From positions 382-64,381 of the forward strand of contig MFBU01000009.1 in assembly GCA_001775055.1 (NCBI GenBank): a stretch of 64,000 nucleotides of DNA, written 5' to 3'. The translations under genes and the position numbers were made by a program. Under the pieces are notes generated by a model. The model searched no databases. It was not told the origin of the DNA and saw only the letters and a list, made by a program, of their open reading frames with translations. This document shows, piece after piece, positions 7,355 to 51,419 of this stretch (position 1 is the stretch's first letter; the number at the start of each line of letters is the position of its first letter). The stretch is from Candidatus Curtissbacteria bacterium RIFCSPLOWO2_02_41_11 (GTDB lineage: Bacteria; Patescibacteriota; Microgenomatia; Curtissbacterales; GWA2-41-24).

Positions 7355-8222
7355 ATAGGTTTGACTAAGTCAAGCCCTATAGTGTTAATTGGGGAAGAGA
7401 AGAATTTAACAAATTTCTAATTTCTAAATCCTAACTTCTAAAATTTTAGCTTCAATTTATAAAAAATTCCCGCAAAAAAAATATGATAGAGGAGGCGGAG
7501 TAGGGGGTATAGGTTTACACTGAGCGAAAGCGAAGTGATATAGTTTGATACATTTCGTGAAAACGAGAAGAAAAAAAGCGTGAAAAATTGATCAAGCTAT
7601 AGATTATCAACTATAAGGTTTTAATTACACGGCTAAAAGGATATAGTCAGGTATAAATCAGGTATAAATATAGAGGACTATGAGGCTCTTTATCCTCTAT
7701 AAGTTGTCCAATTTGGCAATTTTAGCAAGCGATGACCATGAATGCTAATGGCTAAAGTGCTGTTTTTGAGGGTTTTTGGGGAGGGGGTCTTTTAGGACAC
7801 AATTGACAATTGACATTTAACCTTTAACATTTTTTTCTACATCTTTTGCACCATTACTCCCCACAGAATAAGGGATAATGTTGCCGTCGCCTATGCGTCG
7901 CACAATGATACTTTTGCGACATAGATTGAGGCCGAGAGAGCAGGCGAAGCTCAATTTTGGTTTCTGGTTTCCAGTTTCAGGTTTCTAGTTATATTATTGT
8001 TGTTTCTTTATTTTTGACTTTTAACTTTTAATTTTTAACTTATCCAGTTTGTTCCATTTATCCCCTATTTGTTTTTATTTGCGTATTTTAGATTCTCTTT
8101 GCTCTTAAATTAATTAAAATAATGGTGGGAAATATCTAATTAATATAAAACGGCCGTTAAAAGGGCAATAATAGGCTTGGTGAACTTGAAAAAGCTTGTT
8201 GGAAAGCCTAAAATTAAAACTT

Positions 8223-10918: not shown

Positions 10919-11100
10919 TTAAGGTTATTTTAGCAGTTTCACCCTGATCATGTCGACTTTACGTCAGTTGTTGGTGAAAATAGGATTTGGGACACAGAGT
11001 CGAAGACCCTGAGCGAGTGAAACGAGTCGAAGGGTCGCAGAATTTTGGGGATAGCTTCCCCACTTCTTGATTTTTACTTTGAGAGCGTCGTACAATTGTA

Positions 11101-11156
11101 ACTGACAACTGACAACTGACAACTGACAACTGACAACTGACAACTGACAACTGACA
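11101..11156 (+). repeat. 8 perfect tandem copies of heptamer ACTGACA ending 3 nt before the xerC-like ATG
   Basis: Counted directly: 56 nt = 8 x 7. Spurious ORFs 10959..11150 and 10964..11239 are artefacts of this tract. Confidence 0.9.
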
Positions 11157-11159
11157 AAA

Positions 11160-12095
11160 ATGGCTTTTGATCTGCCCTCTTTGATTGATGAGTTTTTAGA
11201 GTATTTAGAGATTGAGCGCAATCTCTCCCCTCTTACCATTCGCGATTACCGGCATTACTTAAATCATTTTGCTGATTGGTCAAAAAACCATTCTCCGATT
11301 TTGCGACCTCAGGATATAACAGTCGAGTTAATCCGCAAATATCGAGTGTATTTAGCCCATTACAACAGCCCGAACGGCCAATTACCTCTTAAAAAAGTCA
11401 CCCAGAATTATTATGTTATTGCCTTGCGGTCGTTTCTTAAATATTTAATAAGAAAAGATTTACCGGTGATATCGCCTGATAAAATTGAGCTTCCCAAAAC
11501 CGAAAGCCGTTCTTTGAAGTTTTTGGATCGGGATCAAGTTGATCGACTCTTGGTTCAACCGAATGTATCAAGCGAGCGAGGGATTCGTGATAAGGTTATC
11601 ATGGAGATGCTTTTTTCAACGGGACTTAGGGTTTCGGAATTGTGTCGGCTGAATCGGGACCAAGTTAATCTAGAGCGAGGTGAATTTGGAGTTGTCGGCA
11701 AAGGTCAACGCTTGCGGGTGGTTTTTCTTTCTGATAGGGCTAAAATTTGGCTGGAGAAGTATTTGGCAAGAAGAACGGATAGTTTTAAGCCGCTTTTTAT
11801 TCGGTATGCCGGTAATCAGGAACCTGTGGTTAATGGGGAGAAGATGAGATTGACTCCCCGATCTGTTCAGCGAATCATTGACAAATATGTGCGAAAAGCC
11901 CGTTTGCCGGTGAAGGCCACGCCCCATGTTCTTCGTCATTCATTTGCAACCGATCTTTTAATGAATGGAGCGGATTTAAGATCAGTGCAAGAGCTTTTGG
12001 GTCACAAGAATGTTTCTACCACCCAAATTTACACCCATGTAACAAATCAACAGTTGAGAGACGTACACAAGGCCTTTCATTCAGGGAATAAATAG
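11160..12095 (+). CDS. tyrosine site-specific recombinase XerC/XerD family
   Basis: N-terminal core-binding domain (FLEYLEIERNLSPLTIRDYRHYL) and C-terminal catalytic motifs (RHSFATDLLMNGADLRSVQELLGHKNVSTTQIYTHV). Confidence 0.88.
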   Translation: MAFDLPSLIDEFLEYLEIERNLSPLTIRDYRHYLNHFADWSKNHSPILRPQDITVELIRKYRVYLAHYNSPNGQLPLKKVTQNYYVIALRSFLKYLIRKDLPVISPDKIELPKTESRSLKFLDRDQVDRLLVQPNVSSERGIRDKVIMEMLFSTGLRVSELCRLNRDQVNLERGEFGVVGKGQRLRVVFLSDRAKIWLEKYLARRTDSFKPLFIRYAGNQEPVVNGEKMRLTPRSVQRIIDKYVRKARLPVKATPHVLRHSFATDLLMNGADLRSVQELLGHKNVSTTQIYTHVTNQQLRDVHKAFHSGNK

Positions 12096-25151: not shown

Positions 25152-25247
25152 GGGTATCACGGGCGCCAAGGGTATCACGAGTACCACAGGCTTAAAACAA
25201 AAAGCTCTTGATACTTTTGGTACATTTGATACCTTTGGTACTCTTAA
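25152..25247. repeat. copy A of a ~95-nt dyad-symmetric intercistronic repeat family (GGGTATCACGAG...AGCTCTTGATAC...GGTAC arms)
   Basis: Shares >60% identity and the same arm order with the copies at 37605, 40886 and 50511. Confidence 0.7.
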
Positions 25248-25254
25248 CATAAAC

Positions 25255-26343: not shown

Positions 26344-27558
26344 ATGTCACTTTACCGTTATACAGCCAAGGATTTAAGCGGCAAAAAGTTTACCGGCGAA
26401 GTCGAAGCAATTGACGAGAAAGCCTTGGTAACCACTCTTCAAGGCGAAGGGCTGGTGCCGATTGAGGTTAGAGAACGCAATGCCCAAGGTTCTATAACTA
26501 TTGAGAAAGTCTTGCCTAAGACTGGCGGAGTTTCTTCCTCTGAAATTGTGGGTTTTACCAGACAGCTTTCGACAATGATTTCAGCAGGTCTTCCTTTAAC
26601 CGATGCCTTGGTAATTTTGGAAAAACAGGCTAAAAATAAGCATTTTGCGCGGGTACTTGCAGAAGTTGTGGCTGATGTCGAAGGCGGTACGTCGCTTTCG
26701 GCGGCTTTTGCCAAACATCCCAGAGTTTTTGACATTATCTATGTGAAACTGGTTGAGGCCGGTGAAACCGGCGGAGTTTTGGATAAGATTTTAAATAAAC
26801 TGGCCGAGTCTTTAGAGAAAGAAAGGGAATTTAAGGCGAAAACCCGGGGCGCTTTTATTTATCCGGCAATTGTGGTTGTGGTTATGATTATCGTAATGAG
26901 TATTATGATGATTTTTGTAATCCCCAAACTGACCAGTCTTTACACTGAAATCGGAGCAGCCCTGCCGCTTCCAACGAGAATTTTAATTGTCATGTCTAAT
27001 TTCATGAGGTCGTTCTGGTGGCTTTTAATAATGATGGTAATAGCCGGTACTTATAGCTTTAGGACATATTCCAAAACAGTCAGGGGCGGCCAGATTGTCT
27101 CAAAATTTGTTTTATGGTTGCCCATTTGGGGAAAAATCCGCAAAACCTTAATTTTAGCTCAATTCACGCGCACGCTTGGACTTTTAATCGGTAGTGGAAT
27201 CCCAATTATTACTGCCCTAAAAGTGGTGGCCGATCTTTTGGCCGCTCCTACTTATAAGGAAGGTATTGAATTTGCAATTTCCCGGGTGGAGCGTGGTGCG
27301 CCGCTTTATCAACCGCTGGCTGCCAGTCCCGATTTTCCGCCGATTATCGGGCAAATGATCAGAGTTGGTGAGGAAACAGGTAAGATGGACGAGGTCTTGA
27401 TTAGACTTTCTGTTTACTTTGAAGCGGAAAGCGAGAATTTGATTCGAAATTTAACAACGGCACTCGAGCCGGTAATTTTAGTGATTTTGGGTGCGGGCGT
27501 TGGTGTTTTAGTGCTTTCTATTATCCTGCCGATCTACAATTTGACAGCGCAATTCTAA
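26344..27558 (+). CDS. pilC: type IV pilus platform protein PilC (GspF family)
   Basis: Two GspF repeats and three transmembrane segments. Confidence 0.9.
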   Translation: MSLYRYTAKDLSGKKFTGEVEAIDEKALVTTLQGEGLVPIEVRERNAQGSITIEKVLPKTGGVSSSEIVGFTRQLSTMISAGLPLTDALVILEKQAKNKHFARVLAEVVADVEGGTSLSAAFAKHPRVFDIIYVKLVEAGETGGVLDKILNKLAESLEKEREFKAKTRGAFIYPAIVVVVMIIVMSIMMIFVIPKLTSLYTEIGAALPLPTRILIVMSNFMRSFWWLLIMMVIAGTYSFRTYSKTVRGGQIVSKFVLWLPIWGKIRKTLILAQFTRTLGLLIGSGIPIITALKVVADLLAAPTYKEGIEFAISRVERGAPLYQPLAASPDFPPIIGQMIRVGEETGKMDEVLIRLSVYFEAESENLIRNLTTALEPVILVILGAGVGVLVLSIILPIYNLTAQF

Positions 27559-27580
27559 CTGGAAACTAGAAACTATAAAC

Positions 27581-27946
27581 TTGGAACCAGACACAGTAAA
27601 TTTTAGATTCTTAAATTTTAAGGTCTACAAAGACGCAAAAAAATTTTATCATGAGATTGTTAGGATAACTGCTAACTTTCCTAGGCAATATTGGGAGTTG
27701 GGAGACCAGATGAGAAGAAGCGCTCTTTCTGTAATTCTTAATCTAGCAGAGGGTTCAGCCAAGAAGTCAGACAGAGATTTTAACCGTTACATTAAAAATA
27801 GTTTAGGGTCAATAAATGAGTGCGCAGCGGGTATTGACGTGGCTTTTGGCGAAAAACTTGTAAATGAGGAGGTTTTTAAAAATCTAATGATTAAAGCGTC
27901 AGAAATCGCAAATCAATTAGGCGGGTTCTCAAAATCTTTGAGGTAA
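27581..27946 (+). CDS. four-helix-bundle protein (23S rRNA IVS protein / Avd-like family)
   Basis: FRFLNFKVYKDAKKFYHEIVRITANFP...RRSALSVILNLAEGSAK...SLGSINEC fits the TIGR02436/Avd pattern. TTG start. Confidence 0.75.
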   Translation: MEPDTVNFRFLNFKVYKDAKKFYHEIVRITANFPRQYWELGDQMRRSALSVILNLAEGSAKKSDRDFNRYIKNSLGSINECAAGIDVAFGEKLVNEEVFKNLMIKASEIANQLGGFSKSLR

Positions 27947-28124
27947 CTCGAAACATTAAACCTTAAACTTGAAACCATAAACTGAACAGAGACTAAGTGG
28001 TGGTAGCTTGTGAAGTATTTCATGTTTCCAGTTTATTGTTTCCTGTTTCACGTTAGGTATCTTGACAACAGTTAACTTATCCCCAATACTTAAATAGAAG
28101 AGGAAATTTGAAAAGTTTATCCTC

Positions 28125-28136
28125 AGGAGGAGGTGA
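28125..28136 (+). promoter_or_regulatory. strong Shine-Dalgarno AGGAGGAGGTGA for the major pilin gene
   Basis: 10 nt upstream of ATG 28147. Confidence 0.5.
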
Positions 28137-28146
28137 ATAAATTTTT

Positions 28147-28623
28147 ATGGTTATTCCTGCCCGAAAGAAATTATTCAGGGGCTTCACATTAATTGAGCTT
28201 TTAATCGTCATTGCTATTCTGGGAATTTTGGCAGCCGCTGTTTTGGTTGCAGTCAATCCGAAAAAGAGACAAGATCAGGCTAAAGATGCAAATATTAAAG
28301 CTGATGTTGGATCAATTGCAACAGGACTTCAGGCATACTTTACTTCACCTGGTCAAGGATCTTACCCGCTTACTTTGCTAAAACTCGAAGAAAATAAAGA
28401 TTTGGTGAAGGTTCCAACACCTCCTGCTGGAGCCGGTGCCGAGTACGTATATGCAGTAAACCCATCAGCGACTTGTGATGGTACGGCAACAGCTCAATGT
28501 ATATCTGCAAGCGTTTCTGCGCCATTATTTGATAAGACTGCAACAGATGAGGTATGGTGTTGGCAATCATCAACCGGTAAGGGTCAGCCTGTGACTGCCG
28601 CTGTAGGTTGTCCGGCAAACTGA
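28147..28623 (+). CDS. type IV pilin (prepilin with class III signal)
   Basis: Leader MVIPARKKLFRG|FTLIELLIVIAILGILAA, with Glu at +5 and a C-terminal Cys pair. Confidence 0.9.
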   Translation: MVIPARKKLFRGFTLIELLIVIAILGILAAAVLVAVNPKKRQDQAKDANIKADVGSIATGLQAYFTSPGQGSYPLTLLKLEENKDLVKVPTPPAGAGAEYVYAVNPSATCDGTATAQCISASVSAPLFDKTATDEVWCWQSSTGKGQPVTAAVGCPAN

Positions 28624-28659: not shown

Positions 28660-29115
28660 ATGTGTCGGCAACATGGATTTACATTAATCGAGCTTTTGAT
28701 TGTTGTTGCAATCTTGGGAATATTAGCCTTGGTGGCGTTCATGGCAATTAATCCGGCAAAACGCCAAAATCAGGCCAAAGATGCTAGGACTAAAGCTGAT
28801 ATTGACCAAATAGCCACTGGGCTCGGAGTCTACTTTACCACGCATCAACCACAAACCTACCCCGTGGATCTTTCAGAGGTTGTCAATAACAAAGATCTTA
28901 AATCTTTACCTACCCCTCCTAATAGTGGTACATACGGGAGTGGATACGCGGCAGTTGCCGAGGATGGAGGGACGTGTGACGGAGGTACGATTGTTTGTAG
29001 CCGGGCAAAGCTTTCATGGACCCTTAATGACCCTCAAAATGGTAATAGCGTATGGTGTTGGCAATCATCAACCGGCAAAGCACAACCTCTTACTCCCGTT
29101 TTGTGCACCCCTTAG
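28660..29115 (+). CDS. type IV pilin paralog
   Basis: MCRQHG|FTLIELLIVVAILGILA; C-terminal WCWQSSTGK segment shared with the preceding pilin. Confidence 0.9.
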   Translation: MCRQHGFTLIELLIVVAILGILALVAFMAINPAKRQNQAKDARTKADIDQIATGLGVYFTTHQPQTYPVDLSEVVNNKDLKSLPTPPNSGTYGSGYAAVAEDGGTCDGGTIVCSRAKLSWTLNDPQNGNSVWCWQSSTGKAQPLTPVLCTP

Positions 29116-31739: not shown

Positions 31740-31832
31740 AGTTACAACTGACATTTGACCCACCTTCGCTAAAGCTACGGTGGGCAAGCAATTGACAACA
31801 GAGGGCTATTCTACCTAAACTGGAGTTAGGAG

Positions 31833-32618: not shown

Positions 32619-32647
32619 CAACTGACAACTGACATTTGACAAAAAAT

Positions 32648-37604: not shown

Positions 37605-37700
37605 GGTTTAAGGGTATCACGAGTTGTCAGAGTACCACGAGTATCAGGAGCTCTCTTGACTTTTCAGCTCGTGGTACTTTTGATACTCTTGGTACCCATA
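37605..37700. repeat. copy B of the dyad-symmetric intercistronic repeat; overlaps the last 11 codons of nusB
   Basis: GGGTATCACGAGTTGTCAGAGTACCACGAG...AGCTCGTGGTACTTTTGATACTCTTGGTACCC. Confidence 0.7.
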
Positions 37701-38243: not shown

Positions 38244-38405
38244 ATAAATAATTTAAAATTTAAAATTTAAAATTTTTTCTACCACCTACTAACTATCTAA
38301 CTACAAACTAATCTGGGGTATCAAGGAGTCAAGGGATCAAAAAATTGCTTTTGGCTCTTTGACTTTTCGATACCGGTTGGCATTATATCAGAAATAGCTT
38401 TGTCG

Positions 38406-40885: not shown

Positions 40886-40985
40886 GATAAGAGTATCACG
40901 AGTTTCAAGTGAATCAAGAGCATCAAAAGCTTTTTGATTAATTATAGCCAGTGGTACCCGTGGTGTTTTTGGAGTTCGTATTGCT
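40886..40985. repeat. copy C of the dyad-symmetric intercistronic repeat
   Basis: AGAGTATCACGAG...AGCTTTTTGAT...GGTACCCGTGGTG. Coordinates are ±10 because of the display inconsistency. Confidence 0.6.
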
Positions 40986-40990
40986 TTTAT

Positions 40991-41107
40991 TTAATTAAAT
41001 CCGTACAAAAGATAGATAGCAAATTGGCCAATAATAAAGCTTAAGCCGGCAATAACAATAATGGCAATCCAGATTTTTTTAAGATAAGAGCGTTTGAATA
41101 ATTTCAT
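40991..41107 (-). CDS. 38-aa single-TM peptide overlapping the tyrS stop by ATGA
   Basis: Hand translation gives MKLFKRSYLKKIWIAIIVIAGLSFIIGQFAIYLLYGFN. Coordinates are approximate (±10) because the display line 41101 carries only 50 nt. Confidence 0.35.
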   Translation of the reverse strand: MKLFKRSYLKKIWIAIIVIAGLSFIIGQFAIYLLYGFN

Positions 41108-44435: not shown

Positions 44436-46997
44436 ATGAAGTTTTCAGCATATCGACCGGGGGGCCGCAAGTTTTCATCAAGACTTGCCAAACTTTCCTC
44501 CCGAACTTCTTCTCATCCGTTCTTGCGCCAAGGAAGTTTTAACAAGCGGCGGTTTTGGATTCGTTTTTTTGGCTTAGTTTCAACTCTTGTCTTCTTTTCA
44601 TTAATCGGCCTAGTTATTTTTACCATTTTTTCGTTTATAGTATTTGCCAAAGATTTGCCCTCACCGTACAAATTAACAACCAGAGATGCTTCTCTTTCGA
44701 CCAAAATTTATGACCGAAACGGTAAGCTTCTATACGATATTTTCGGTGAGAAAAATCGCGCACTGGTTAACTGGAATAATTTACCGCCTTATGTAAAGCA
44801 AGCGACAATTTCCATTGAGGATAAGGATTTCTATAAACATCGGGGATTTTCCTTTTTGGGTATTTTTAGGGCTTTTTTTAATATTTTAATTTTCCATAAA
44901 CTGCAGGGAGGTTCGACCATAACCCAGCAGGTTGTCAAAAATACCCTGCTTTCACCAGAGCGCACTCTGACTCGCAAAATTAAGGAATTTATTCTCTCCA
45001 TTCAGGTTGAGCGTAAATACACCAAAGATGAGATTTTACAAATTTATTTAAATGAGGTTCCTTACGGCGGTACTGCTTGGGGGATCGAAGCGGCTGCCCA
45101 AGCTTATTTTAACAAAGAGGCCAAGGATTTAACCTTACCAGAAGCGATAATTTTAGCGGGTATGCCGCAGCGACCATCATATTATTCGCCTTTTGGATCA
45201 AATCCTAAAGCATATATTAGTCGGGCCGAAGATGTCGCCAGAAGGATGCGGGAAGATGATTATATTTCCCGTGATCAGCAAGATCAGCTCAAAAAGCAAG
45301 TAACGGATGTTAAATTTTCAGCTAACGAGCAGGGTATCCGTGCTCCCCATTTTGTCTTTTATGTCCGTGATCTTTTGGCAGAAAGATACGGTGAGAAATT
45401 TTTAGAGCAGGGCGGTCTTAAAGTAACGACTTCACTTGATCTTGACTTGCAGGAAAAAGTTCAAAAAATCGTGACTGAAGAGGTTGCTAAAGTTGCCGAT
45501 CTTCGTGTCGGCAACGGTGCGGCAGTAGTCATCGATCCTGCGAATGCCGAAGTTTTGGCTATGATCGGCTCCAAGGATTATTTTGCCAAAGAGTACGATG
45601 GACAAGTTAATGTAACAATGTCTCTTCGCCAGCCGGGTTCGGCACTAAAACCTTTTACTTATGCTACGGCTTTTAAGGCCGGTTACACGCCTTCCTACGT
45701 TTTAATGGATGTAGCGACTGAGTTTCCCGGAGGCGCCGGTCAACCGTTCTATAAACCGGTCAATTACGACGGAAAATACCGCGGGCCGGTCCAAATCCGC
45801 TTTGCTCTGGGTAATTCGATCAATATCGCGGCTGTTAAAATGACAGCTTTGGTCGGTATTAAAAACATGCTGCGGACTGCCTATGAGGCCGGACTTAAGT
45901 CATTGGAGCCAACCGACGAAAATCTTAAACGATTCGGTCTTTCAATTACCCTTGGAGGTGGTGAAGTTAGGCTTTTGGATCTAACTTCCGGCTATGCCAC
46001 TTTGGCAAATCGCGGCAAATACCTCGAGCCTGCTGCCATTTTAAAAGTTGAGGACAAAAACGGGAAAGTGCTTGAGGAGGTTAAGGATAGACGCGCCAAG
46101 CAGGTTATTGATGAGGATATTACTTTTTTGATTTCGCACATTCTTTCCGACAACAACGCCAGAAGTCTGGTTTTTGGCCCTTCTTCACTTTTAAACATTG
46201 GGGGGAAAACAGTTGCCGTTAAAACCGGAACTACCGATGACAAACGCGATAACTGGGCTGTTGGCTACACGCCGTCGGTAGTGGTTGGCACCTGGGTTGG
46301 CAACAATGATAATTCAGAGATGGATCAAAAAGTTTCCTCAGGTGTAACCGGTGCGACGCCGATTTGGAATCGGGTGATGTCAGAAATTTTAAAAAATAAG
46401 AGTGCGGAAAATTTTGCTAAACCCGATAATGTTACTGCTTTGGAAATTGACGCTCTTGGAGGTGGACTCCCCTGCCGGGATTATCCAAAAAGAAGCGAGT
46501 ATTTCATTCGCGGAACCGAGCCTACCCGCGATTGCTTAGTAGAAAAGACTTTAGACGGTAAAGAATATTTTGTTTTTGTCGAGTTTGATCCGGTTTCAAC
46601 TGATGGTAAAAATCGCTGGCAGGAAGGTATTGACGCTTGGTCGCAGAGCCAGTCAGATCCGAAGTACAAACCGCCGAGTGAACTTAAAAACGAGCCAACT
46701 AAAAATCCGGATGAAATAACAGTTAATATTAAAAAACCTTCTGACCATGATCAAGTCGATTATACTTTTGAGACTGAGGTAGAGGTTTCAACCGGCCGTA
46801 AAGTAACTAAAATCGAGTTTTACATAGACGGATCAATTAGGGATACCAAGACTTCTGATGCTTCCTATAAGTTTAATTTCACTTTTGCTGAGGCTAACAA
46901 GGGTAAGCATAAGATAAAAGCGAAAGCTTATAACGAAGCGGGGCGCGACGCCGAAAGGGAGATTACCGTTTCCGTCGGACAGCCTTGGACTGACTAG
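44436..46997 (+). CDS. class A penicillin-binding protein (PBP1A: glycosyltransferase + transpeptidase) with C-terminal extension
   Basis: GT51 motifs (ISIEDKDFYKHRGFSF, GGSTITQQ) and transpeptidase motifs (SALKPF, SxN, KTGT). Confidence 0.9.
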   Translation: MKFSAYRPGGRKFSSRLAKLSSRTSSHPFLRQGSFNKRRFWIRFFGLVSTLVFFSLIGLVIFTIFSFIVFAKDLPSPYKLTTRDASLSTKIYDRNGKLLYDIFGEKNRALVNWNNLPPYVKQATISIEDKDFYKHRGFSFLGIFRAFFNILIFHKLQGGSTITQQVVKNTLLSPERTLTRKIKEFILSIQVERKYTKDEILQIYLNEVPYGGTAWGIEAAAQAYFNKEAKDLTLPEAIILAGMPQRPSYYSPFGSNPKAYISRAEDVARRMREDDYISRDQQDQLKKQVTDVKFSANEQGIRAPHFVFYVRDLLAERYGEKFLEQGGLKVTTSLDLDLQEKVQKIVTEEVAKVADLRVGNGAAVVIDPANAEVLAMIGSKDYFAKEYDGQVNVTMSLRQPGSALKPFTYATAFKAGYTPSYVLMDVATEFPGGAGQPFYKPVNYDGKYRGPVQIRFALGNSINIAAVKMTALVGIKNMLRTAYEAGLKSLEPTDENLKRFGLSITLGGGEVRLLDLTSGYATLANRGKYLEPAAILKVEDKNGKVLEEVKDRRAKQVIDEDITFLISHILSDNNARSLVFGPSSLLNIGGKTVAVKTGTTDDKRDNWAVGYTPSVVVGTWVGNNDNSEMDQKVSSGVTGATPIWNRVMSEILKNKSAENFAKPDNVTALEIDALGGGLPCRDYPKRSEYFIRGTEPTRDCLVEKTLDGKEYFVFVEFDPVSTDGKNRWQEGIDAWSQSQSDPKYKPPSELKNEPTKNPDEITVNIKKPSDHDQVDYTFETEVEVSTGRKVTKIEFYIDGSIRDTKTSDASYKFNFTFAEANKGKHKIKAKAYNEAGRDAEREITVSVGQPWTD

Positions 46998-50506: not shown

Positions 50507-50510
50507 AATG

Positions 50511-50608
50511 GTAAGAGTACCATGGGAATCAAGGGTATCAAGAGTATCATGAGCTTTTTGATTTATAGCTCTTGGTACCCGTGGTACTCTTGGAACCCGT
50601 GATACTTT
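50511..50608. repeat. copy D of the dyad-symmetric intercistronic repeat, filling the rpmI–rplT spacer
   Basis: AGAGTACCATGGG...GGGTATCAAGAGTATCATGAGC...AGCTCTTGGTACCCGTGGTACTCTTGG; long imperfect hairpin. Confidence 0.75.
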
Positions 50609-50610
50609 TT

Positions 50611-50805: not shown

Positions 50806-50846
50806 ATTCGAACTTTAAACTGTAAACTTTAAACTTGAAACTAATT

Positions 50847-51419
50847 TTATGTTGCAGGTTTATTGTTTCCGGTTTCTGGTTGTTTTGAGTGAGTTCTTAC
50901 TGGTTTGATTATAGTGACAAACCTTCTTCCTTCGAATTTTGCTTCTCTTTCCGTTACGGCTATATCTGAAAGCTCTCTTAGAATTCTTTCCAAAAGTTTT
51001 GGCCCGAATTCAGTATGAGCCATCTGTCTTCCCATAAAGACTATTGATATTTTAACCAGATCGCCTACAGAAAGAAATTTTTTAACTCTTTCCAGCGCGG
51101 TTTGTAAATCATGCTCGCCTATAAACGGCGAAAAACGAACTTCTTTAAGTTCTGCCTGCTTGGTGTGTTTTCTGGCTTCTTTTTCCTTTTTTTCTTCTAA
51201 ATATCTGAATTTTTTAAAATCGACTATTTTGACGACCGGTGGCTTGGCGTTTGATGCTATTTCAACTAAATCCAAATTTATTTCTTGAGCTTTTTTTAAA
51301 GCTTCAGGAAGCGATAAAATTCCAATTTGTTTATGTTCTTGGTCGATGACCCGAACTTGATTTGCCCTAATTTGGTGATTTATTCTAAATTGTTTCTTGA
51401 CGGCCAGCCTCCTAATAAT
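50847..51419 (-). CDS. infC: translation initiation factor IF-3, probably with a non-AUG (AUU/AUC) start
   Basis: The track ORF starts at an internal TTG (MDLVEIASNAKPPVVKIVDFKKF). The frame stays open upstream and encodes the IF3 N-domain (...RINHQIRANQVRVIDQEHKQIGILSLPEALKKAQEINLDLVE) with no in-frame ATG. Candidate ATT at 51419/51416, ATC at 51431. 5' end uncertain. Confidence 0.7.
   Translation of the reverse strand: MIRRLAVKKQFRINHQIRANQVRVIDQEHKQIGILSLPEALKKAQEINLDLVEIASNAKPPVVKIVDFKKFRYLEEKKEKEARKHTKQAELKEVRFSPFIGEHDLQTALERVKKFLSVGDLVKISIVFMGRQMAHTEFGPKLLERILRELSDIAVTEREAKFEGRRFVTIIKPVRTHSKQPETGNNKPAT

Follow-up and report, generated by a model that had tools for sequence, protein, structure and literature searches.

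Ribosomal RNA intervening sequences (IVSs) that carry an open reading frame (ORF), together with 'S23p' proteins, have been known since 1993 without an explanation of their function or origin. Heptamer tandem repeats, the short tandemly repeated repetitive (STRR) sequences and their relatives, have been known since about 1990 and are equally unexplained. An ORF-bearing 23S rRNA IVS was reportedly described in Leptospira by Ralph and McClelland in 1993. This study concerns a gene of the same protein family, PF05635, and the heptamer arrays around it, found between pilC and the major pilin gene of Candidatus Curtissbacteria bacterium RIFCSPLOWO2_02_41_11. Throughout, the window is the whole 64,000-nucleotide (nt) stretch of contig MFBU01000009.1 that was analyzed.

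In Coxiella burnetii, the PF05635 ORF of the 23S IVS is looped out by a 28-bp terminal stem that RNase III cuts, and two or three tandem heptamers, their number varying among strains, stand right before the S23p start (PMC4990558). A catalogue of 16S and 23S rRNA insertions in bacteria of the candidate phyla radiation (CPR) describes 23S_rRNA_IVP ORFs in rRNA only and mentions neither flanking repeats (0 occurrences of 'repeat') nor non-rRNA copies (bioRxiv 10.1101/2024.02.27.582315). PF05635 ORFs in 23S IVSs and CPR rRNA insertions, and heptamers in the Coxiella IVS, are thus already known. Heptamer simple sequence repeats (SSRs) are over-represented in other genomes, as convergent GGGAATC pairs in Xanthomonas and GGGGAYT in Nostoc (PMC4692102) and as TAACTGA in Beggiatoaceae (PMC4679880). 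In these papers the repeats figure as G-quadruplex or regulatory SSRs, with no mention of PF05635, S23p or IVS. Our literature search, whose coverage was incomplete, found no paper tying non-rRNA PF05635 genes to bracketing arrays or STRR-type repeats to this protein.

The locus in the window is probably an IVS-type selfish cassette, excisable by RNase III, that occupies an mRNA spacer instead of an rRNA helix. Its ORF and arrays constitute a sporadically distributed unit able to enclose itself in a stem. The upstream host gene, pilC (26344–27558, plus strand, as are all features of the locus; T2SSF, PF00482 in orthologous loci), ends in a TAA codon (27556–27558) that abuts array A1 (CTGGAAAC TAGAAAC TATAAAC TTGGAAC CAG; 27559–27590), a run of degenerate (G/T)AAACNN heptamers belonging to repeat family D4. 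A1, which the preliminary description of this DNA had not recorded, overlaps the TTG start codon of the PF05635 ORF (27581–27946), for which a Shine-Dalgarno (SD) sequence is absent. Array A2 (CTCGAAAC ATTAAAC CTTAAAC TTGAAAC CATAAAC TGAAC; 27947–27987) repeats A1 in direct orientation and serves as the left arm of a local hairpin, whose loop (27988–28020) holds no detectable PF05635 remnant. Array A' (CATGTTTC CAGTTTA TTGTTTC CTGTTTC ACGTTAGG; 28021–28057; families D6 and D11) consists of inverted heptamers and is complementary to both A1 and A2. A pilin promoter-like site, TTGACA-17-AATACT (28062–28090), was located by motif scan and by comparison with relatives, in all of which it stands directly 3' of the hairpin or cassette. 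It is followed by the downstream host gene, the major pilin (28147–28623 by ORF and domain calls), with an N-methyl motif and a strong SD sequence, GGAGGAGG. The placement of an Avd-like gene between pilC and the major pilin gene, as first described, is therefore correct.

The arrays can enclose the gene in RNA. A1 and A' can form an interrupted stem of about 30 bp around the ORF, and in a fold of 27540–28075 A1 pairs with A' around the whole ORF, in the minimum free energy and centroid structures alike. The isolated A1/A' duplex has a predicted energy of −29.6 kcal/mol (z −5.4, 0 of 300 shuffles) and the A2/A' duplex one of −21.5 kcal/mol (z −4.0). An intrinsic terminator was rejected as an explanation of these structures, there being no GC-rich stem followed by a T-run and 0 terminator-like (T-tract) sites in 27300–28300; the stems are A/U-rich and interrupted. 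A known RNA family was likewise rejected, as Rfam at E ≤ 1 returned nothing relevant in 27400–28200.

Profile searches, an AlphaFold2 (AF2) model and template-modeling (TM) scores identify the 121-residue product as a four-helix-bundle '23S rRNA IVS protein'. It matches PF05635 (23S_rRNA_IVP) with an E-value of 7.9e-25 and 87.6 bits (cutoff 33.8) and TIGR02436 ('four helix bundle protein') with 82.4 bits (cutoff 24). The AF2 monomer model (pLDDT 94.9) places helices at residues 14–30, 35–59, 64–90 and 96–119. The family signature R-x3-S-x3-N-x2-E-G, which corresponds to the GxxRxxxSxxxNxxE motif of PMC3936711, is present in helix 2 of the window protein, which reads QMRRSALSVILNLAEG. In an alignment of homologs, R46, S50, E57 and G58 are invariant and N54 nearly so. 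Purifying selection acts on the ORF, with a dN/dS of 0.09 between the window copy and its ortholog at L061 (loci in other assemblies are designated by L numbers). The product is 100% identical to a protein of the metagenome-assembled genome of Candidatus Curtissbacteria RIFCSPHIGHO2_12_41_11 (Microgenomates, CPR). PADLOC returned no defence-system match for it, and a role as a defence-system protein was rejected.

The preliminary description had assigned the protein to the 23S-rRNA-IVS or diversity-generating retroelement (DGR) Avd family. The IVS half of that assignment stands and so does the likeness in fold, whereas membership in Avd does not. The structures nearest to the AF2 model are the free-standing proteins Xcc0516 (2GSC; TM 0.92, root-mean-square deviation 1.2 Å) and BT_0352 (2RLD; TM 0.80), while DGR Avd (4DWL and the Avd chains of 8UB7) aligns with TM 0.73–0.76 at 7–10% identity. 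The DGR Avd equivalog model NF033474 scores 17.1 bits against a cutoff of 80, and the Pfam search gave no match to PF22296 (bAvd). The Avd-like fold, the sub-cutoff Avd score and the closer 2GSC and 2RLD structures together argue that the protein is Avd-like in fold but is not Avd. PF05635 matches outside DGRs should accordingly not be named Avd in annotation.

The same evidence bears on the idea that the gene is a DGR remnant or accessory, an Avd working with a reverse transcriptase (RT) elsewhere in the genome to diversify pilin C-termini. Besides the fold, this idea draws on the position of the gene beside two tandem pilin paralogs, which near their C-termini have a stretch of 49 nt in common at 84% identity (28552–28600 and 29050–29098; VWCWQSSTGK...; D8). 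That stretch is in frame in both pilins, its differences are not adenine-specific, and it reads as ordinary paralogy, not as a DGR pair of template repeat (TR) and variable repeat (VR). None of the 20 window ORFs of 230–505 residues carries an RVT domain, nor do the called neighbors in L011–L017, and the 64 kb contain no TR/VR-like direct repeat with adenine-specific differences; the initial statement that no RT or template repeat is visible in the window holds. Moreover, the gene is absent from close relatives and inverted in others. All three checks, by Avd model, by RVT domain and by TR/VR repeat, came out negative; DGR membership was rejected, and a DGR origin is extremely improbable.

Comparison of the pilC–pilin spacer among relatives supports the view that the gene is a sporadically present cassette and not a fixed operon member, as had been suggested at the outset. 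Among 80 metagenomic loci of PilC relatives, 7 hold a homolog of the ORF detectable by tblastn and 73 do not, and 5 of these 73 hold divergent PF05635 alleles instead. The gene is thus not syntenically conserved, which answers the question of its presence or absence between pilC and pilin in relatives. Loci without any PF05635 gene include PilC relatives of 92%, 84% and 79% identity. The two 92% relatives, L020 and L021, are about 95% identical to window positions 27944–28150 and keep the A2–loop–A' hairpin, yet 27559–27946 is missing; this indel, the A1 and ORF segment, is bounded on both sides by TAACTNGAAAC. Conversely, L061 (PilC 98%) has A1 and the ORF followed directly by A', and A2 and the loop are missing.

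A vertically inherited component of the pilus operon, such as a pilin regulator or chaperone with incidental repeats, would account for the purifying selection on the ORF and for the pilB–pilT–pilC–ORF–pilin synteny of some Curtissbacteria (L001, L011–15, L052 and L061), where the ORFs are 75–88% identical and the order is the simpler A1–ORF–A'. It does not fit the absence of the gene from most PilC relatives, close ones included, nor the ORF identity of 75% at L052, where PilC is only 67% identical. Homologs of 72% and 55–60% identity stand behind radA-like genes, beside rpmB and within 16S rRNA; the 72%-identical allele, at L016/17, follows a radA-like operon and is flanked by the same TAAAC/GAAAC arrays. 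A vertically inherited component is also at odds with the unrelated PF05635 alleles that occupy the same spacer in the opposite orientation. We regard this alternative as very unlikely. In the L001, L011 and L052 assemblies, which share an identical ORF (354 nt) and 1070 nt of pilC, the CTGTTTC array 3' of the ORF has 8, 9 and 12 units; the difference reflects either rapid slippage or repeat collapse during assembly.

The divergent alleles at the pilC–pilin spacer (L041/56, L042, L046, L051 and L059, all confirmed by Pfam) are 20–30% identical to the window ORF, and several lie on the opposite strand. They are bracketed by inverted arrays of other units, for example TCAGCTAAAA 10-mers and GAAGTGG-type heptamers. 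A 62%-identical allele at L047 is inverted and likewise lies between inverted arrays of another unit. The same spacer has evidently been invaded independently by unrelated PF05635 alleles, each with its own repeat unit.

The same bracket recurs inside rRNA. Insertions near position 70 of 16S rRNA (L002, L003, L104, L106 and L107) carry PF05635 ORFs 49–60% identical to that of the window between inverted heptamer arrays, and Rfam SSU matches span these insertions. Helix 6 of the rRNA is itself free of such arrays, so they must be part of what was inserted. The 16S genes of L106 (2503–2776) and L107 (2312–2732) also contain group I introns further downstream. Bracketed PF05635 genes stand between the fmt operon and rpmB at L108–110, and a scan of viral contigs yielded one locus, L111, with inverted heptamer arrays. 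Comparison of these loci shows, at the level of sequence, a unit that enters, in either orientation, both rRNA helices and operon spacers and that apparently leaves or occupies ORF-less hairpins.

In all, about 30 PF05635 genes have the same bracket, in CPR bacteria, Gemmatimonadota, Planctomycetota and cyanobacteria. The units are GGGGCCG/CCCCCGG in Gemmatimonadaceae and GGGGGTT/AACCCCC in Phycisphaeraceae; in Bacteroidales the bracket is less clear, with a downstream array only. Finished cyanobacterial plasmids carry it as well: in Nostoc edaphicum, the PF05635 gene has (GTAGGGA)x8 upstream, (TCCCTAC)x5 downstream and lies between nrdB and nrdA, on the strand opposite to theirs. In Xanthomonas campestris, repeat #15 of the published GGGAATC list lies over the start codon of XCC0516, the gene for the protein of PDB entry 2GSC. 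A contig search with a single protein as query gave at least 10 loci, diverse enough to show the bracket pattern. On plasmid pPg_01 of Pseudanabaena galeata (L098), a PF05635 gene (46268–46627) lies between cas6 and cas4 with direct arrays of (AAAAGCT)x15 and (AAAAGCC)x9. PF05635 genes near cas genes are already known in the literature, and arrays next to cas genes might contribute to the reported 'CRISPR-linked' calls for 23S_rRNA_IVP.

These brackets were compared with the flanks of 348 control ORFs from the same loci. The median flank inverted-repeat score is 30 for PF05635 genes and 16 for controls (p 1.8e-5), and 65% of PF05635 genes lie above the 95th percentile of the controls. The median z of the flank duplex is −3.7 against 0.06 (p 1.5e-7). 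Similarity of flank arrays, measured by 5-mers, rises with ORF identity (Spearman 0.58, Mantel p 2e-4), so that the repeat unit co-varies with the protein clade. Owing to the degeneracy of the arrays, a strict tandem-period score (mismatch −2) told PF05635 genes and controls apart only weakly, and the inverted-repeat and duplex measures discriminated better.

Arrays of this family also occur in the window without an ORF. The preliminary description had likened the segment after the ORF to 50806–50885, and formal alignment bears this out. The right arms (28017–28054 and 50844–50881; family D11) are 82% identical, with a best local alignment of 28/33 and a score of 41, against 16 ± 2.6 and a maximum of 28 in shuffles. 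The left arms (27945–27975 and 50811–50841; family D4) are 84% identical, and 50806–50885 is the best non-self match to the segment within the window. Variant heptamers stand in one order at the pil and infC/rpmI loci, which argues for homology rather than composition alone. At infC–rpmI, the left arm (50809–50841; on the plus strand CGAACTT TAAACTG TAAACTT TAAACTT GAAAC; 84% identical to A2) stands 4 nt upstream of the start of the minus-strand gene rpmI. The infC stop codon (50847–50849) falls in the hairpin loop, and the right arm (50850–50882; 82% identical to A') encodes on the minus strand the last 10 codons of infC, so the look-alike does cover the infC stop and last codons. Ten of ten contigs fetched by the exact L35 sequence are identical across both spacers and so gave no information on how the infC–rpmI spacer varies among relatives.

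It does not follow that the infC 3' end and rpmI leader were duplicated into the pil locus, as first proposed. The final codons of infC, PETGNNKPAT, are the heptamers of the right arm read in frame, and the Pfam domain IF3_C stops at residue 188, leaving 17 of the 205 residues beyond it. The early end of the domain and a tail built of arm heptamers point to derivation of the infC tail from the hairpin, not of the pil segment from infC. C-terminal tails such as that of IF3 here can be repeat-array read-through, which annotators should bear in mind. By the composition of its arms, the infC/rpmI segment is an ORF-less hairpin of the (G/T)AAACNN heptamer family and not a copied ribosomal junction. 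A third family locus, which had previously gone unnoticed, is the solo GTTTC-type array TGGTTTC TGGTTTC CAGTTTC AGGTTTC TAG (7958–7990; family D6). It falls in a stretch of 841 nt (7355–8195) without an ORF of at least 60 residues, where AATTTCT, ACAATTG/ACATTTA and TTTTAAC arrays accompany the TGGTTTC array.

These observations also decide against the view that the infC 3' end and rpmI leader were copied to give a portable terminator or regulatory module. The identity of the arms and the shared order of their variant heptamers are what such a copy would produce. However, the overlapping codons are a non-domain tail, the same hairpin stands without an ORF at the pil site of L020, the family has its third member at 7958–7990, a T-tract terminator was not found, and the infC–rpmI hairpin folds no better than shuffles on the sense strand. 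Such a copy is improbable. What survives of the proposed portable module is its portability, as a member of a dispersed hairpin family; its role as a T-tract terminator does not.

Taken together, the spacer loci, the rRNA insertions and the ORF-less hairpins suggest how an IVS-type cassette could persist in an mRNA. The pilBTC read-through transcript would cross the element, and A1 (or A2) would pair with A'. By analogy with the Coxiella 23S IVS, RNase III would then cut the array duplex and excise the ORF RNA. Excision would spare pilC and the separately promoted pilin gene, and such sparing of flanking genes would explain tolerance of the unit in rRNA and operon spacers alike. The protein, a probable Avd-like pentamer, may bind nucleic acid of its cognate repeat array, as Avd analogy suggests, and serve in processing, stability or propagation. 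The ORF-less hairpins, at infC–rpmI (50809–50882) and in A2–loop–A', would be derivatives, either non-autonomous or produced by deletion. Recombination or slippage between direct arrays such as A1 and A2 could generate them with precise loss of the ORF; TAACTNGAAAC flanks A1 and the ORF on both sides. It is in this sense that we infer the mobility of the cassette and the function of its protein.

Several observations weigh against an RNase III-excisable cassette. The full 536-nt fold is no more stable than shuffles (z −0.9). The stems in the window are broken every 5–7 bp by 1–2-nt mismatches, which makes them poor canonical RNase III substrates. As sense RNA the infC–rpmI hairpin has little stability (−9.4 kcal/mol, z −0.8). 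When both strands of 12 hairpins were folded, which of the two was more stable did not track which was transcribed; selection at the RNA level, sought through G·U strand asymmetry, was unsupported either way in these 12. A1 and A2 are direct and not inverted repeats, as are the flanking arrays of Pseudanabaena, and direct arrays fit protein-binding or recombination sites better than a stem. Three archaeal homologs have no clear arrays. A six-frame hmmsearch with --max, which found only the one gene, detected no PF05635 remnants in the ORF-less hairpins or in the gap at 7355–8195. We know of no catalytic function for PF05635. Finally, at L050 a RelE-like toxin–antitoxin (TA) pair, not a PF05635 gene, stands between TAAAC/GTTTA arrays, so the hairpin can host other cargo.

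This last locus is what would be expected if heptamer hairpins were host landing pads or regulatory structures, for which PF05635 genes are merely the commonest cargo. Such structures could be operon insulators, mRNA-stability elements or SD-less translation leaders. The window is rich in intergenic 7- and 9-nt arrays and hairpins, often inverted pairs and absent from the preliminary description, and counts at least 12 such loci to one PF05635 gene. L022–24 hold different ORF-less heptamer hairpins at the same site upstream of the pilin promoter, and many arrays lie directly before start codons, as does TAACTGA of Beggiatoaceae (PMC4679880). Host-owned structures are harder to reconcile with the 16S insertions, where the arrays arrive with the ORF in a helix that has none of its own. 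Array type, moreover, goes with the clade of the ORF, even when a single spacer is compared among related hosts, and the bracket recurs in phyla of very different GC content, each with its own unit. For the arrays as a host property, in any of these forms, the balance of this evidence is unfavorable, and we consider it rather doubtful.

The cassette reading has consequences beyond this locus. The IVS architecture is not confined to rRNA, and an ORF and its bracketing arrays behave as one unit. The two old puzzles of S23p proteins and heptamer repeats can then be joined in one hypothesis, in which the protein acts on its cognate arrays, by binding or propagating them, and the stem renders the insertion harmless via RNase III excision. 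We advance tentatively, as a possibility short of an expectation, that PF05635 proteins are the trans-acting part of a very large cross-phylum family of repeat-array elements. Its autonomous copies, an ORF with cognate heptamer arrays, might reside inside rRNA as IVSs and outside it as cassettes. ORF-less arrays, among them the cyanobacterial STRR, the Xanthomonas GGGAATC pairs and the arrays of this genome, might conceivably be non-autonomous progeny. Each protein clade could, on the same speculative footing, recognize its own repeat unit.

Other repeats of the window and of its relatives were recorded alongside. A second hairpin family is built of 9-nt units, of GGTATCAAG / CTTGATACC type, at 25152–25254, 37605–37663, 38300–38405, 40886–41000 and 50507–50610. 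Its stems are strong (for example −33 to −45 kcal/mol, z about −6) and sit at pilB|pilT, rpmI|rplT and other gene pairs, with no associated ORF found in the window. A perfect (AACTGAC)x8 array (11100–11157) is followed after 2 nt by the ATG of a gene for a XerC/D-like tyrosine recombinase (11160–12095), and the unit also precedes two pilus-operon ORFs (31745–31760 and 32619–32635). AACTGAC resembles the TAACTGA repeats upstream of start codons in Beggiatoaceae and cyanobacteria, and several arrays of the window stand in place of an SD sequence.

Small selfish modules of other kinds also collect in the pilC–pilin spacer of relatives, a hot spot for them, at L035 (3787–4451), L037 (3822–4363), L050 (3758–4300) and L060. 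They comprise a PIN-domain pair (L035) and RelE-like toxin/antitoxin pairs, among them the pair of L050. The window lacks an element of 75–80 nt that, single or as a tandem duplicate, follows the pilC stop in at least seven relatives; it occurs at L020 (3716–3790), L030, L037, L040, L043 (two copies), L044 (two copies) and L047. It has the form GGAAGTnAGATTGCGG, a variable inner hairpin with compensatory changes, then TTGCGGGCCTAAATnTnAC...TTTTAA, and its final part duplicates the last ~25 nt of pilC, stop codon included. Rfam gave no match for it.

Set against the known systems, the locus shares features with five of them. With MITEs (miniature transposable elements with inverted repeats) and repetitive extragenic palindrome (REP) hairpins it has in common the dispersed, homologous ORF-less hairpins accompanied by one ORF-bearing copy with related arms, the pattern of autonomous and non-autonomous elements. 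Its arms, however, are tandem arrays and not unique terminal inverted repeats, it has no transposase or REP-associated tyrosine transposase (RAYT), and there is no clear target-site duplication beyond the shared TAACTNGAAAC. Heptamer SSRs, the cyanobacterial STRR included, are alike in being intergenic and tandem, often as inverted pairs or before start codons, with lineage-specific units of variable copy number. Repeats of exactly this kind flank XCC0516 and the PF05635 genes on cyanobacterial plasmids. Those of the window differ in being A/T-rich and tied to an ORF cassette.

DGR Avd (4DWL, 8UB7) is likewise a four-helix bundle, and PF05635 also matches Avd-like proteins. Avd is a nucleic-acid- and ribonucleoprotein-binding pentamer, which may serve as a functional analogy for the window protein. 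The two are unlike in that the window lacks RT, TR and VR, and in the sub-cutoff score and low identity given above. The CPR rRNA insertions come from the same superphylum and protein family, and L002, L003, L104, L106 and L107 are such insertions.

The fifth counterpart is the ORF-bearing 23S rRNA IVS of Leptospira and Coxiella. Both have a PF05635 ORF in the loop of a stem of about 28–30 bp formed by terminal inverted repeats, tandem heptamers of variable copy number that abut the ORF start, a poor or absent SD sequence, and the sporadic distribution of a selfish element. The window copy differs in its location, the pilC|pilin spacer of a protein operon instead of the tip of an rRNA helix, and in the extra direct array and loop (A2) between the ORF and A'. 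Excision by RNase III is a feature of the Coxiella element, whereas the window element is known here from its sequence. The two genes are also in different states: the Coxiella ORF is decaying, while that of the window is under purifying selection.

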